In this document: positions 2,940-9,811 of the stretch, piece by piece
Numbering within the stretch: position 1 is the stretch's first letter
Layout: every line of letters starts with the position of its first letter
Source of the DNA: Giardia intestinalis
Taxonomy: Eukaryota
Assembly (NCBI GenBank): GCA_000002435.2
Contig: CM018792.1
Strand: one strand, 5' to 3'
DNA: 64,000 nucleotides
The notes under the pieces: generated by a model
What the model was told of the DNA's origin: nothing
The model's database searches: none
The model's input: the letters and a program-made list of their open reading frames with translations, nothing else
Made by a program: the position numbers and the translations under genes

Positions 2940-3863
2940 CTAATCCTCGGCAACTTCACTAATATTTGAGCTACGATTGCTCGTAGTACTGGCAAAGGAT
3001 CTCAGGTGTATGGCAAACTCGGCATGTGAGTCGGACATATTGCTGCACACGGCTGGATCTATTTCTATCTCATCTTGGGTGCCGTGAATGTTCACAAAGG
3101 AAGCTTGCACAGGTGACGCCAAGGACCGAACAGACGGAACTGTTTCAACGCTCTCAAAAGAGCCACGGAACAAGTGAGCAGGGTCTACCTTAAAGCGGGA
3201 CACCAGCAAGGACGGATTGGTCGCATCCTCTTTATAGGTCATTGAACCTGGAACTATGTACCGTGGAGACACCGTTCCCGAAAAATCTGCCGGAACCTCA
3301 GCACTGAAAACGGTACCGGACAGGGAGACGATATTGGATATAGATTCTGCAACCCTCTGCTTTCGATTTTCTTCTCCTGCGACACACATGGCTGCTACGA
3401 AGGGTCCGAGGTCATACTCTGCATTAGAAGACCGGCTTCCGGATGATCTTTTCCCATGCTTGTTGGATCGGTGTCGTGACTTATCCTTCCCGTTGTACTT
3501 GTGCCCCTTCCAGGCGGAGGAAACCAAGTTGGGATTTGTATAGATGAAGGAGTAAACAGGCTTCGAGAGAGCGTCAGATCCCTCTTGTGAGAGGCCGTAG
3601 CTCATGCTCAGCTTGTCTGTGGTTGATGGCTCATCAGCTAATGGCTTCCTTTTCTCTCTGACCGTGCGATCCTTGCGTTTGCTAGTATTTTCTGTAAGCA
3701 TCTGAACCGCCAAGGACAGGGGAGAAAGCGGCCTCGCAGAAGCTATTACACAACTGGAAGCCTTTCTCTTGCTCTGCTTACATCCAGGTGCATGGCTCAG
3801 AGGTTGATACCTGTCGCCACCTGGCTTTCCAGGTGCTGTTTCTGGAACAGTAGAAACTTTCAT
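2940..3863 (-). CDS. hypothetical Ser-rich protein
   Basis: 307-aa ORF with an ATG start at 3861-3863. Low-complexity Ser/Lys/Arg stretches. No motif recognised. Confidence 0.35.
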   Translation of the reverse strand: MKVSTVPETAPGKPGGDRYQPLSHAPGCKQSKRKASSCVIASARPLSPLSLAVQMLTENTSKRKDRTVREKRKPLADEPSTTDKLSMSYGLSQEGSDALSKPVYSFIYTNPNLVSSAWKGHKYNGKDKSRHRSNKHGKRSSGSRSSNAEYDLGPFVAAMCVAGEENRKQRVAESISNIVSLSGTVFSAEVPADFSGTVSPRYIVPGSMTYKEDATNPSLLVSRFKVDPAHLFRGSFESVETVPSVRSLASPVQASFVNIHGTQDEIEIDPAVCSNMSDSHAEFAIHLRSFASTTSNRSSNISEVAED

Positions 3864-4754: not shown

Positions 4755-5160
4755 TTTGGTTTAAAAGTTTCAAGTCGAGCCCACATTGTATGCCATATGT
4801 CTTTGAGAAGTCTGAGACAGGGATGCTGGTCATTATCTCTCTGACTGCTGTGAGCGGGCTTTGCCAGTTAGCGACACTGCGATTGGCTCCGCTTAGATCG
4901 CTGCTATCATCTATACTGTATCAGGCGGTTTTTGCCACAAATCCTAGTAACTAACTGTATTAGTATCTTAATCTATGTGTTATCGATGTAATGTCATCAG
5001 CTTTTAATTGAGTAACTCACTACTTGCTCACCTCTCAAACCTACGCCTTGCCACCACTTATCTGCCGTGATTTTGGATCTTCTCCGGGTCCCTATTCAGA
5101 TACTGCGTGTCGCTTGAAGATCTATGGCCAGATATCCACCAGCGGATTCATCGATGATGC

Positions 5161-5175
5161 GTTTACTATCTAAGT
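5161..5175 (-). promoter_or_regulatory. VSP-type extended polyadenylation signal (ACTTAGATAGTAAAC) immediately 3' of the stop codon
   Basis: The minus-strand sequence directly after the TAG stop of the truncated VSP reads ACTTAGATAGTAAAC. This matches the described Giardia VSP 3' consensus ACTYAGRTAGTRAAY, which contains the general AGTRAAY poly(A) signal. Confidence 0.55.
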
Positions 5176-6993
5176 CTACGCCTTTCCGCGGCAGATGAAC
5201 CACCAACACAAGAAGCCCACGAGGCCCCCAACGACAACAATCACAGCGACGGAGATCCCCGCGATGGCCCCCGTGGAGAGCCCGCCCCTGTTGGCGCCAG
5301 AGGACACACACCTGCCACCCTCCAGCTTGTAGTCGTCCCCGCACTGGCCGCACTTGTTCTCCTCGCTGCACCTGATACACCCGTCGATATTGCAGGCGAT
5401 GCACTTCGTTCCGTCTGTGTCCGGTCTCTGGTCTTTACTGGTACAGGCCTCGCACTTGCCGCCTGCTCCACAGTGCGAGCATCCGTCAACGGTACATGCG
5501 AAGCACCCGCTCCCAGCCAGGTTGGGCTTGTTGTTGCCGCTACACGCTGTGCACGTGGCGGGGGCCATGCCAGGAGCCTCTAGCGCTGCTGGGGCCGTGC
5601 ATGCTGTGCAGCCATATACCCCCACATATGCCTTAGCGGTGCTGCCAGCCCCTATCACTGTGCCAAGGGGGTTCTCGCAGGCCAGGACAGACTGATCAGT
5701 ACTGGATGCCCCCGGGACCAGGAAGTACCGGCCGTTCTCGCTGGGGGCGGTGCACCTCCCTCCCTCGGCAGTCTTGCACATATAGCTACCAGGAGCCTTC
5801 GACACATCATAGCAGCCGCCCATGTACAGGAAGTACCCGGCAGCACACCGGGTGCAGACGCCGTTCTCGCAGGTGTTGTCACCTTTAGTTCCTGTGCAGA
5901 TCCCATCGATGGGGAACGTGGCGGGGTCTCCGCACAGCGAGCAGTACTGGGAGAACGCCCCGGCGCTGTCAACGACGACCGCCCCGCAGGCCCCAGACGT
6001 CCCCCCGCAGGCCGTGGGGTCCTCGCAGGCCTTTGTGCACTTCACCGGATTGGTTCCCTCCTTGCGATAGTTGGACTTGCAATCGGTGCATGTAGGGGTT
6101 AGGCCGCTGTTACATTGGGAGCACCCCTCGATGCCATTGTCGGCTTTACTGTCGCAGGCGAAGCACTTACCAGCAGAGCCGGGTTGTTTCATGAAGAATC
6201 CAGGCTTGCATTTAGTGCACTGATCATTGCCAGCAGCAGAGCATGTAGCACAGTTGGCACCGCAAGCTGTGCATGTATCAGAACCAAAGTATCCGTCGAG
6301 GCAAGCTGAGCAGGTCGGCTTGGCTCCGTTCTTCTTACACGTTTTACAATTAGCAATCCCCTTGTCGTTTGCTTCTGTTCCTGTTGTTGTATCACTGCAT
6401 AATATGCACTTGGTGCTATCATCACTCAGAAAGTGGGATCCGTCGACGTTATCTGTTGCGCACCCAGCATCATCGACGCAAGTGGTTGTCCCATCCAGCT
6501 CTGTCTTCACCTTCTTATTGTTACAGGCGGTGCACTGGGGCTTGCTGACAGTCGTGTTGTACTCACACGCGGTGCAATCTGCTATACCAGACTCCTTGCA
6601 TGTCCTTGTCACAGGGTCAGCATAAGTGTTTCCTTCACATGTAGGTGAACAGGTATTATCGCTTTTCAGATACTTCCCCTCCTTACAGGATGTGCAATGA
6701 TTCGGACCACTTCCACTGCAAGTCAGACAGGACTGATCACACTGATTGCATTCGTTATTCTCTTTATAGTACCCCTCTTGACAGGCAGTGCACGTGGCTG
6801 CCCCCTTATTATTAGTTGGTGCCGTACATGTGGCACAGCCCTCGACTCCCTTCGTCGCGCCATCTCCCACCGTGTCCCAGCAGAGGATGCACTCATTACC
6901 AGGAGTCACTGTTGCAGCCGGGTTCTTGAACAGGCCGTTAGCTGTGTTACAAGCAGTGCACACTCCACTACTGGCCTTTGTGCATATCTCACT
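5176..6993 (-). pseudogene. 5'-truncated variant-specific surface protein (VSP) copy lacking a start codon and signal peptide
   Basis: The ~600-aa frame is packed with CXXC motifs and a GGCY motif (…AAGYFLYMGGCYDVSK…). It has a C-terminal TM helix plus the invariant CRGKA tail (…GFLCWWFICRGKA). The track M at 6961-6963 is GTG. The frame is closed by an in-frame stop at 6994-6996. The first in-frame ATG is ~260 codons in (…GFFMKQ…). Only 109 bp separate it from the stop of the upstream VSP, so there is no room for a signal peptide. Confidence 0.7.
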
Positions 6994-6996
6994 CCA

Positions 6997-7048
6997 CTAT
7001 CACCCTCTATCATCACCCTCTATCACACACTATCACCTTCTATCACAC
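6997..7048. repeat. imperfect ~10-bp tandem repeat (CTATCACNNN x5) at the VSP-VSP junction
   Basis: Read directly: ctatcaccctc / tatcatcaccctc / tatcacacac / tatcaccttc / tatcacacat. It lies between the poly(A) motif of the upstream VSP and the truncated VSP. Confidence 0.6.
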
Positions 7049-7056
7049 ATTGTACA

Positions 7057-7072
7057 GCATTCACTACCTAAG
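7057..7072 (-). promoter_or_regulatory. VSP-type extended polyadenylation signal (ACTTAGGTAGTGAAT)
   Basis: The minus-strand sequence immediately after the TGA stop (7073-7075) of the full-length VSP reads ACTTAGGTAGTGAATGC, a perfect match to ACTYAGRTAGTRAAY. Confidence 0.55.
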
Positions 7073-9049
7073 TCACGCCTTCCCCCTGCAGAGGAACCAC
7101 CAGCAGAGGAAGCCCACGAGGCCCCCCACGACAGCGACCACAGCGACGGAGATCCCCGCGATGGCCCCCGTGGAGAGCCCGCCCCTGTTGACGCTTCCGC
7201 CGGTGTTGTCGCCAGTGCCGTCGCCCATCTCGAGGCACATGAACGCACCGGTGGATGACACCGTGCACTGCCTGCACCCAGCGAGCCCCTCAGAGCACGG
7301 ATTACACTTTGTCCCAGCACTCTGCGGTTTGTAATATCCAGTGCTGCATGTAGCACAGGCGTTAGCGTCGTTAGCAGCCGTGCATGTCTCGCAGCTAAGA
7401 TGGCACCTTTTATTGGAACAATCGCCATTATCAGCCGTTAGACCACTGGCACATTTTGTACATTTTCCTCCCTGCACTGTAGTACACACCTGCTTGCCAG
7501 GCTGTCTATCTGTCTGATAGCAACCACCATCTTTGAGGAAGTAGTTATTTTCACATTGAGTGCATGCTCCATTACTCACCGTAGTGCAAAATCGTGTTCG
7601 CGTATTGGCCGCACAGTTGCCATCCAGTGGTGCCTGTTGAGTGTTCTTGCACTTTGAGCAGTATGCAGTTCCTCCTATTTGGGCCCCACACTCTGCGCAT
7701 CCATCGTTTGCAGGGCTCACGCTGCACTGGTTCATGCACGTGCCCCCATTGGCAGGAGTATCAGCATCTGTATACTGAAGCATCCTCCCAGCAGGACAAG
7801 CCGTACACTTATCAGCGCCCTCACCCTTGCACTCTATGCACGCATCGTTGCACTTCTTGCACTTTCTGTCAGTGTCATTTCCGTAGTAGCCCTTGAGGGT
7901 CGTGCAGTCAGATACGCATTGACTGGTTGGGGTGAGGTAGTACTCAGACAGACACTTTGTACAGACCTCCTTATCGGCACCTTCACCGGTGCACTCCAAA
8001 CAGTGCTCTGTGTTACAGTTACTGATTGGTTGGCATTCAGTCGATTCAGTATTAGGTTGGAGTCCTTCGTTGCACTCGCACATTTGGCTACCCTGCCCGG
8101 TGGCCTTGGGGGTAGAGTTAGCAGGGCAACTAGCAACGCACGACTTTCTGTTGAGACCAAAGATGGTCTTCTTGCCAGTCGTACATGTCTTGCAAACCAC
8201 TCCGTTGGCGCCTTTCTCACAAGTGGTGCAGTCCACCGTCCCTCCTGAAACGCAGGTGTTGCACTCCTTTGCTTCTTCATCAACGTAGTGGGTTGCCGGA
8301 CAACCAGCTGTATCAACACATTCTCCTGAATTACTAGAAGCATCTGTCACTTTAAGATATTCCTTGTCGTTGCCACCAGCTGATTTCAGCTTGCATCGTG
8401 TGCATTTGCTGTTTCCTGCTCCAACACATGTAGCGCAGTTATCATCGTTGCAGGCAGTGCATGCTGTTCCGCCAGAGGCAACAAAGAATCCTTCAAAGCA
8501 CGTCTTGCATGTGGCGGTTTTCCCCAAACGAAGAGCACCAGCAGGATTCTCTATTGTGCACGTCGCACAGTTCTGAACCCCCTTGTTTTCATCTATAGCT
8601 GTGGTTTGATTGCATGCAATACAGGACTCCTTCGTTTTATCGAGAGATTCTGTCGGATTCTTGAAATATCCCGGGCTGCACGCCTCGCAGACCCCTTGAG
8701 TTTGTGACGCCTGCGTGTCCTCGCAAATGAGATTCCCCGGCTCCGTCCCTATCTTGTAACATCCTCCCCTGTGCAGGAAGAAGCCGGCTTTACAAGATGT
8801 ACATGTGCCATCATTCTTTGTTGTACATGCTCCTTCAGCATCCTCGCCTGTAGTTATGCACTTTCCATTGACAAGATGCTCTGCTGCTGTCGAGCACTGG
8901 GAGCAGAAGTTTGAGCCCCCAATCCAGACGTCGCACTTGTCCTGTTTGCATTTCTTTGATTCCGGGTCGCTGGTAGCCACTGTGCATGTTTCTGCCGCAG
9001 CCCATACCACTTGCAGGATGGCGATTCCGAAGATGATTTTCTCGAACAT
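7073..9049 (-). CDS. vsp: variant-specific surface protein (VSP), full length
   Basis: Track ORF 7073..9070 starts with GTG; the first ATG at 9047-9049 gives MFEKIIFGIAILQVVWAAAETC…, a hydrophobic signal peptide. The ectodomain is Cys-rich with many CXXC motifs and a GGCY motif (AGFFLHRGGCYKIG). The C-terminus has a TM helix and the invariant tail …GGLVGFLCWWFLCRGKA. The VSP poly(A) motif follows. Confidence 0.85.
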   Translation of the reverse strand: MFEKIIFGIAILQVVWAAAETCTVATSDPESKKCKQDKCDVWIGGSNFCSQCSTAAEHLVNGKCITTGEDAEGACTTKNDGTCTSCKAGFFLHRGGCYKIGTEPGNLICEDTQASQTQGVCEACSPGYFKNPTESLDKTKESCIACNQTTAIDENKGVQNCATCTIENPAGALRLGKTATCKTCFEGFFVASGGTACTACNDDNCATCVGAGNSKCTRCKLKSAGGNDKEYLKVTDASSNSGECVDTAGCPATHYVDEEAKECNTCVSGGTVDCTTCEKGANGVVCKTCTTGKKTIFGLNRKSCVASCPANSTPKATGQGSQMCECNEGLQPNTESTECQPISNCNTEHCLECTGEGADKEVCTKCLSEYYLTPTSQCVSDCTTLKGYYGNDTDRKCKKCNDACIECKGEGADKCTACPAGRMLQYTDADTPANGGTCMNQCSVSPANDGCAECGAQIGGTAYCSKCKNTQQAPLDGNCAANTRTRFCTTVSNGACTQCENNYFLKDGGCYQTDRQPGKQVCTTVQGGKCTKCASGLTADNGDCSNKRCHLSCETCTAANDANACATCSTGYYKPQSAGTKCNPCSEGLAGCRQCTVSSTGAFMCLEMGDGTGDNTGGSVNRGGLSTGAIAGISVAVVAVVGGLVGFLCWWFLCRGKA

Positions 9050-9446
9050 TGCCGGCAGCCCATAGAGCACGCAACACCAGGCGACGCTGCCACGTGGTGA
9101 GTGAGGATAATGTGCACCTCACAGGCATGCCCCGGTGTAGCGGATCTCTGGTGTCCTAGCGGCCTCTCCTGTGTGTGGCGTCTCTAGGTACCAAGGAGAG
9201 AATGGGCGTTGTGACATCTCAAGAACGGCCCCTCGCACATCACCGGTACCTGCGACAGTAGCCACCACCCCACGAATGGTCCGCTCAGATAGTGAATACG
9301 TCCACTGCTATGAAACTGGACCGATGCTCTTCACAAGAGCTGCCTGGACGGGAAGAAGCGCTGTGCTGTTGGGATTGCCTGTAAGCGCACCCAGAAATCC
9401 CACGAGTAAGTTTCACTCTTGTGGTCGTGTCCGGAGACAAACGTTA

Positions 9447-9468
9447 GTCCCTGATGATATCATCAGGG
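9447..9468. repeat. perfect 22-bp palindrome TCCCTGATGATATCATCAGGGA
   Basis: Read directly; it is self-complementary around a central GATATC. It lies in the 760-bp divergent intergenic region between the VSP (-) and the HCMP (+). Confidence 0.55.
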
Positions 9469-9811
9469 ATCTCTCTTTATTTGTATACCAGGAGTTGCTT
9501 GTATTCATCGGTCGTTTTGTGTAGTATGTGCTCAGACTGAGTGTGTGTCGACCTGCCTCACTTTTTGATCTTCTTTTATGTTGGGTGAAGTGAATCATCA
9601 TCGTCCAAGTAGTATCCGATTTCTTGAATCAAAAAACAGCGAGAATGCCGCTCTACGTGACAGTTCCCATGCTTGACGTTAACTGTACCGGTTGACTACG
9701 CAAGAATCTATGCGAGTCTTATGTTTCCGAGTATTTCTATAACAAAAGTAGTGTGATAGGATTCTCTATTAAATATGGATGCATTAAAAACTTGCTTTCT
9801 CCAGGAGTCTC

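Follow-up and report, generated by a model that had tools for sequence, protein, structure and literature searches.

A start-less VSP pseudogene with a mosaic body in a two-member array on Giardia intestinalis chromosome 4

Results

Organisation of the array

A 64,000-nucleotide stretch of Giardia intestinalis DNA (NCBI GenBank assembly GCA_000002435.2, contig CM018792.1), referred to here as the window, carries two genes for variant-specific surface proteins (VSPs) arranged head to tail on its minus strand. The window lies on chromosome 4 of isolate WB (NC_051859.1), and the VSP gene identifiers are those of the supplement tables of bioRxiv 10.1101/2022.03.07.483299. The upstream gene, GL50803_0032933, is intact, and the downstream one, GL50803_0032890, is an annotated VSP pseudogene (psiVSP or pVSP) that opens without a start codon and is the main subject of this work. 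A preliminary description had recognised a complete VSP gene in minus-strand tandem with a downstream copy of about 600 codons with neither ATG nor signal peptide at its start, and both observations are borne out. The features of the array are as follows.

5176 to 6996, minus strand: VSP pseudogene GL50803_0032890, 606 open codons (WSEIC...CRGKA) and a TAG, assigned from its translation and its Table S7 entry
5179 to 5297, minus strand: family-wide conserved 3' block NRGGLSTGAIAG, with the transmembrane (TM) domain at 5194-5268 and CRGKA at 5179-5193
5157 to 5176, minus strand: extended poly(A) motif GACTTAGATAGTAAACGCAT of GL50803_0032890, with the hexamer AGTAAA at 5167-5162 and an entry in the S6 table
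6997 to 7049, minus strand: junction microsatellite, about 4.7 copies of GTGATAGRGG (TRF period 10, 4.7 copies)
7055 to 7074, minus strand: extended VSP poly(A) motif GACTTAGGTAGTGAATGCTG of GL50803_0032933, with the hexamer AGTGAA at 7065-7060
7073 to 9049, minus strand: intact VSP gene GL50803_0032933 (XP_001709621.2 / KAE8303702.1), identified by an exact protein match
9045 to 9051, minus strand: VSP initiator (Inr) CAATGTT, which spans the ATG of GL50803_0032933

Anatomy of the start-less frame

The sense codons of GL50803_0032890 run from 6996 to 5179, beginning WSEICTKASSGVCTAC, and end at a stop codon at 5178-5176. Across all 606 codons there are 0 stops and 0 frameshifts. The frame contains 28 CXXC motifs, 12.4% cysteine and a single GGCY (residue 393), scores 120.6 bits against the Pfam VSP family PF03302 (cut-off 31.4), and closes with a TM domain AIAGISVAVIVVVGGLVGFLCWWFI followed by CRGKA. 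Table S7 lists the locus under class pVSP on NC_051859.1 with a length of 1821 nt and a sequence beginning tggagtgagatatgcac; it is flagged as ORF N, inner stops N and CRGKA in frame 1. Over the part shown, this sequence agrees with 5176-6996, and the two lengths are equal.

What is missing is the 5' end. GL50803_0032890 has no Inr, the sole YAATGTT on the minus strand between 5000 and 9200 being that of the upstream gene. No ATG occurs before codon 269 (6192-6190; initially placed about 260 codons in), and the frame has no N-terminal signal peptide. The context of this first methionine, MKQPGSAGKCF, is non-hydrophobic and, judged by sequence rather than by a predictor, unlike a signal peptide. 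GL50803_0032890 thus has the ectodomain and C-terminus of a functional VSP and lacks the start, signal peptide and Inr of one. It has the properties of a psiVSP array member: head-to-tail placement, a retained 3' end, the absence of Inr, start codon and signal peptide, and annotation as such. Among 5.8 billion database proteins, none exceeds 73% identity to the 606-codon frame, which indicates that the frame carries no coding-sequence annotation. For two G. duodenalis proteins, P0074 and P0105, the alignment covers 85-95% of the VSP frame; their source names, 'NAD synthase' and 'Dynein light chain, partial', are probably mis-annotations or products of gene-model fusion.

An unrecognised N-terminal exon, which the preliminary description had named as a finding that would overturn it, was not encountered. 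Seven family members supplied N-terminal stretches of 40-112 residues as tblastn queries against the 64 kb window, and these turned up no stray segment of a signal peptide or VSP N-terminus; the matches were the N-terminus of GL50803_0032933, the neighbouring high-cysteine membrane protein (HCMP) gene and internal GGCY repeats. The Giardia intron motifs GTATGT and CTRAC...CAG are absent from the minus strand between 5000 and 10000. On these two results a hidden start or intron for GL50803_0032890 is rejected. When the closest complete paralogue, P0018 of WB, is used as the tblastn query, its residues 103-708 align to 6996-5179.

A VSP of isolate P15, P0059 (L017:6723-8791, ACVC01000194.1), was considered as a further array member and rejected, being a full-length VSP with one in-frame TAG. 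Its annotation starts at an internal methionine (MGGCY...); a signal peptide and the Inr CAATGTT are present, and the TAG lies between ...SSEICT and CRAGG. P0059 may be a VSP pseudogene that arose by another route, or its TAG may be a sequencing error.

A canonical junction and a stereotyped boundary

The first open codon of GL50803_0032890 lies 76 nt beyond the stop of the upstream gene; the separation of 109 bp given earlier is the distance to the first GTG (6963). The microsatellite within this spacer, whose repeat 15-mer has 4 matches against 0.17 expected, gives TGA TAG twice in the phase of the pseudogene. The last of these double stops, at 7002-6997, abuts the first open codon, so that the stop previously placed at 6994-6996 was off by three. 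Three ATGs occur within the spacer. The in-frame one, at 7050-7048, has the Inr-like context CAATGTG, and starts a 5-codon open reading frame (MCDRR, then stop); four in-frame stops lie between it and the body of the pseudogene.

The boundary itself, TAG followed by TGG AGT GAG ATA TGC, is not peculiar to this locus. At least 130 WB pseudogenes start with TGGAGTG[A/T]GATATG (WS[E/V]IC). In Table S7 at least 136 pseudogenes begin tggagtg, which is followed in 69 by tgatatg (WSVIC) and in 61 by agatatg (WSEIC); these counts are lower bounds out of 217 Cys-rich pseudogenes. Typical VSPs read PGSEIC where the pseudogenes begin WS[E/V]IC, and homology therefore begins inside the Gly codon.

The junction also recurs elsewhere. 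An independent ENA contig, L018, carries it at both ends (1-110 and 2150-2215), one copy matching 7074-7005 almost base for base, and it is found again in WB pVSPs starting atgctgtacagtgatagtg. Since the boundary is stereotyped and the junction canonical and recurrent, GL50803_0032890 was propagated as a start-less module and not made by deletion at its own locus. Scans of JGI metagenomes for the junction gave no matches, and Giardia arrays are perhaps absent from that collection.

Within the junction the extended poly(A) motif comes first, ATGCTGTACAATGTG second and the GTGATAGRGG microsatellite, which is variable in length, last. In one phase the repeat reads TGA TAG and in another it encodes Ser-Asp repeats, so that repeat length and phase decide whether the frame opened by an ATG within the poly(A) motif continues into the next cassette. 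A second class of WB pVSPs begins atgctgtacagtgatagtgatagtg (MLYSDSDS...), from a poly(A)-embedded ATG through the repeat in an open phase and into ...LLFMGGCYK. Contig L018 also holds, at 1935-2147, a 70-residue 'mini' VSP array unit consisting of the last CXXC, the TM domain and CRGKA, which implies several truncation classes among array units.

A mosaic body

In a sliding comparison with 137 family proteins, the nearest relative of GL50803_0032890 shifts along the 606-codon frame. Four patches account for the principal partners.

6818 to 6940, minus strand: patch with almost the same DNA as the chromosome 4 pseudogenes GL50803_0050192 and GL50803_0050202, exact over runs of 43, 77 and 72 nt; beyond the patch identity is about 80%
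6175 to 6783, minus strand: patch (codons 72-274) shared with the chromosome 4 pVSP GL50803_00114065 (P0019, XP_001706653.1), an unbroken 203-residue identity
5902 to 6276, minus strand: patch (codons 241-365) shared with P0021, annotated as an HCMP Group 1 protein on another large contig (4.02 Mb, inferred to be chromosome 5), with 125 straight identities
5317 to 6081, minus strand: patch (codons 306-560) recently common with the complete VSP P0018 of WB and its orthologue P0020 in isolate DH, with a synonymous divergence (dS) of 0.07 against DH locus L015

GL50803_00114065 is a separate chromosome 4 locus in the long-read assembly, and at the DNA level its 78 comparable nucleotides (6783-6706) all match the window exactly. 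Residues from about 270 to 560 are 95-100% identical at the amino-acid level to P0018, which lies on the same large contig, and to P0020. Against the DH paralogue at L015, dS is 0.07 over codons 306-560, compared with 1.13 for codons 1-70 and 1.27 for the conserved tail, and it is saturated across codons 71-300; the DNA of L015 is 91% identical to the window over 6081-5125. Where DNA could be compared the patches end sharply, and identity outside them is about 80%.

The body is a patchwork of tracts that match, identically or nearly so, other VSP, psiVSP or HCMP loci, at least four in number, on chromosome 4 and on the second large contig (inferred to be chromosome 5). Because the identical tracts have different partners, dS contrasts strongly along the frame and the patch ends are sharp, the locus takes part in segmental recombination or gene conversion. 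The recombination tests reported by Adam et al. 2010 (PMC2996952) agree with segmental exchange of this kind, and VSPs are enriched among genes affected by gene conversion in assemblage AI (PMC12669663).

P0018 and P0020 both carry ...GGCYKTSQWSEIC (P0018 residue 103, L015:4298), with the unusual tryptophan that is also seen in the starts of at least 130 pseudogenes. The motif QWSEIC occurs in 2 of the 137 family proteins. That it represents a cassette 5' boundary captured by an expressed gene was judged weak, as the serine codon is TCT in place of AGT and upstream similarity is at chance level, and the shared tryptophan may be a coincidence.

Relation to the neighbouring VSP

The two members of the array are only distantly related. 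Their ectodomains, which the preliminary description had rightly seen to diverge, have an amino-acid identity of 42% and cannot be aligned as DNA. The sole DNA-level match of the pair is between 7194-7057 and 5297-5159, at 88.5% over 139 nt. To call the two 3' ends near-identical was therefore an overstatement: identity of the pair across the 117 nt of conserved coding sequence is 89.7%, inside the range of 77-94% seen against unrelated VSPs of other loci and genomes, and the 3' block of GL50803_0032933 is 99.1% identical to that of the mini array unit in the unrelated contig L018. Judged from these comparisons, the shared 3' end is a feature of the whole family and not particular to this pair.

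With only the 3' block shared and 42% identity in the ectodomain, GL50803_0032890 is ruled out as a duplicate of GL50803_0032933. The earlier alternative of a decaying duplicate accordingly fails. Nor is there decay, the 606 codons holding no stop or frameshift, and the truncation point is no local accident but a boundary common to at least 130 pseudogenes.

The locus in other isolates

At the syntenic site, the assemblage AII isolate DH and a second, AII-like ENA assembly carry a different VSP, with an ectodomain amino-acid identity of 35%. The flank downstream of the stop codon is orthologous in both, at about 96%, and the switch in homology falls inside the conserved TM/CRGKA block (window 5176-5297 against L012:624-745 and L011:681-800). 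Both contigs begin inside their VSP, 3' of its 5' end. This comparison suggests that the content of the locus turns over between AI and AII. Short-read (Logan) AI contigs all end inside the conserved TM block, short of the pseudogene 5' junction.

The intact upstream gene and its surroundings

GL50803_0032933 extends from an ATG at 9049 to a TGA at 7073-7075 and encodes 658 residues, with the signal-peptide-like N-terminus MFEKIIFGIAILQVVWA, 25 CXXC and 2 GGCY motifs, a TM domain and CRGKA; it scores 269.7 bits against PF03302. Its start is embedded in the sequence PyAatgTT that Adam et al. 2010 (PMC2996952) define as the VSP Inr. A unique peptide is recorded for it in the S13 table of the Rodriguez-Walker et al. 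supplement, and the S6 table lists the 20-mer GACTTAGGTAGTGAATGCTG for this gene and for many array pVSPs. GL50803_0032933 is the first, expression-competent member of the two-member linear array.

The neighbouring HCMP gene is GL50803_00113987 (HCMP Group 3, NC_051859.1, in the supplement of bioRxiv 10.1101/2022.03.07.483299), and its DH relative sits at a non-syntenic locus. It is divergent from GL50803_0032933, with about 760 bp between the two start codons (9050-9811), which is long for Giardia; this intergenic region presumably holds the promoters of both genes. Elsewhere in the window, GL50803_002170 at 2940-3863 is an exact match to a protein of G. intestinalis WB clone C6. Rfam and tRNA scans of the window gave no matches.

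Discussion

The array described here belongs to a published class. According to Adam et al. 2010 (BMC Genomics 11:424, PMC2996952), vsp genes form 'linear arrays' in which the members lie head to tail with a mean spacing of 60 bp, the extremes being overlap and a gap of 241 bp, and in which the first gene often has an Inr and downstream members never do. The psiVSPs of the WB reference were described by Xu et al. 2020 (Sci Data 7:38) and reclassified by Rodriguez-Walker et al. (bioRxiv 2022); WB has about 200 promoter-less and start-less VSP copies behind intact genes. The locus on chromosome 4 shares with these arrays and psiVSPs (Adam 2010; Xu 2020) the short head-to-tail spacing, the restriction of the Inr to the first gene and the retention of the 3' end, CRGKA and poly(A) motif. 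Nothing essential differs; here the array has two members and sits among single-copy genes.

Outside G. intestinalis, the nearest likeness is to the telomere-adjacent psiVSP arrays of G. muris (Xu et al. 2020, Microb Genom 6:mgen000402), which are likewise tandem VSP copies without signal peptides. Those arrays comprise 5-23 genes, lie almost always next to telomeres and end in CRGK, whereas here a single copy stands behind an intact gene, with single-copy flanks within the window and a CRGKA tail. The G. muris psiVSPs are untranscribed, and exchange with intact VSPs, by recombination or segmental gene conversion, has been argued from their phylogeny (PMC7641422).

A more distant parallel is offered by the VSG pseudogene arrays of Trypanosoma brucei, whose members are likewise promoter-less, 5'-incomplete copies of surface-antigen genes with a mosaic composition indicating segmental gene conversion. 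VSG-type systems, however, switch by conversion into a dedicated expression site, whereas in Giardia each intact VSP has its own Inr. Borrelia vls and Neisseria pilS are further systems of antigenic variation from silent cassettes. Despite the anatomical likeness, and with segmental exchange evident, GL50803_0032890 is not to be placed among donor cassettes of the VSG, vls or pilS kind, because VSP switching in Giardia involves no change of DNA sequence or location, as stated in the background of Adam 2010 (PMC2996952).

The annotation of the locus, the array architecture (since 2010) and the idea of a reservoir in both G. intestinalis and G. muris have already been published. A literature search by gene identifier gave no matches, and a 2024 comparison of Be-2 and WB does not mention pseudogenes. 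The WS[E/V]IC boundary, the junction microsatellite and the tract map, which are not stated in the available portions of Adam 2010, Xu 2020 and Rodriguez-Walker, are minor additions.

We consider it likely that 5176-6996, the VSP pseudogene GL50803_0032890, is a non-expressed downstream member of a two-gene linear array whose frame is kept open by overwriting from the family and which forms part of a recombining pool. Having no Inr or promoter, no start codon and no signal peptide, it would yield no protein. Its open frame would be kept by repeated ectopic gene conversion or recombination overwriting tracts rather than by translation. Its role, if any, would be as one element of the pool of recombining sequence from which the VSP repertoire gains diversity on an evolutionary time scale. 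It would not be a programmed switch cassette, since Giardia switches VSPs without DNA rearrangement. The silent partial VSP cassette shaped by recombination that had been proposed at the outset is, to this extent, upheld by the pVSP annotation and the mosaic tracts; the further suggestion that it donates sequence, rather than receiving it, found no support.

Several considerations weigh against the interpretation as a non-expressed member of a recombining pool. The sharing of tracts would be compatible with GL50803_0032890 as donor or as recipient. At the WB partner loci DNA was compared over the first 400 nt, identity beyond that point being at the protein level. Transcriptional silence is deduced from the anatomy of the locus and from the G. 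muris data, and an open frame of 606 codons could reflect selection on an unrecognised product.

The strongest competing view, which we regard as unlikely, is that GL50803_0032890 is an inert relic, a by-product of unequal crossing-over or array propagation that receives tracts only and has no function. It differs from the preferred explanation solely in denying any donor role. Both the reservoir of cassettes and leftovers of vsp genes that were discarded are proposed explicitly in Adam 2010 (PMC2996952), and the same alternatives appear in Xu 2020. In favour of a relic, the locus has no promoter, start codon or signal peptide, and the untranscribed state of the G. muris psiVSPs (PMC7641422) is in keeping with it. 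The difference in locus content between AI and AII suggests dispensability. The low dS of 0.07 in the patch shared with a complete VSP, itself conserved in both WB and DH, would fit a pseudogene on the receiving side. Two observations tell against a relic, neither of them decisive: most patches are common to other pseudogenes rather than intact genes, which makes one-way flow from functional genes into pseudogenes too simple an account, and a very compact genome has retained about 200 of these units, which have a conserved junction and in many cases an open frame.

A role for an RNA or protein product appears highly improbable. Such a product might arise by read-through from GL50803_0032933, as antisense RNA feeding an RNAi-type silencing pathway, or by translation from Met269. 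The pseudogene lies just 76 nt from an expressed-type VSP, antisense VSP transcripts are abundant in WB, and the long identical tracts would let any RNA cross-target other family members. Read-through would nevertheless have to pass the strong extended poly(A) motif between the two genes, and translation from the junction ATG at 7050 would meet the four in-frame stops before the pseudogene body. Translation from Met269 would begin in a context unlike a signal peptide and without an Inr, and earlier reports of surface-located 'VSPs' without signal peptides are disputed.

An assembly or annotation artefact, whether a collapsed gap at 6964-7072 (as the preliminary description had allowed) or a mis-join hiding the true 5' end, has a negligible likelihood, for although VSP arrays are notoriously hard to assemble and the AI and AII short-read contigs break in the conserved 3' block, there are 0 Ns between 5000 and 9200, the canonical junction recurs in the independent contig L018 and at many pVSPs annotated in the long-read assembly, and the window holds no unaccounted N-terminal VSP segment.

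As a discovery the pseudogene matters little. The value of the locus lies in its being a clean, chromosome-internal two-member array with unique flanks. The tract map could serve in asking whether, over prolonged culture or infection, an expressed VSP ever acquires psiVSP sequence, and the locus-specific stretches 6784-6817 and 6941-6996, with known partner loci, offer a possible marker set for such acquisition.

A more far-reaching proposal, which at present we hold to be doubtful and less probable than the relic, concerns the junction itself. The succession of poly(A) motif, (GTGATAGRGG)n and TAG, TGG AGT G[A/T]G ATA TGC may act as a recombination and propagation module that places start-less cassettes behind intact VSPs and marks the ends of tracts. 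Slippage within the repeat would then toggle whether the frame from the poly(A)-embedded ATG (the MLYSDSDS class) runs into the cassette, and cassettes like GL50803_0032890 would donate patches to Inr-bearing VSPs. Were this so, Giardia would have a slow, DNA-level diversification of its surface antigens on top of epigenetic switching.

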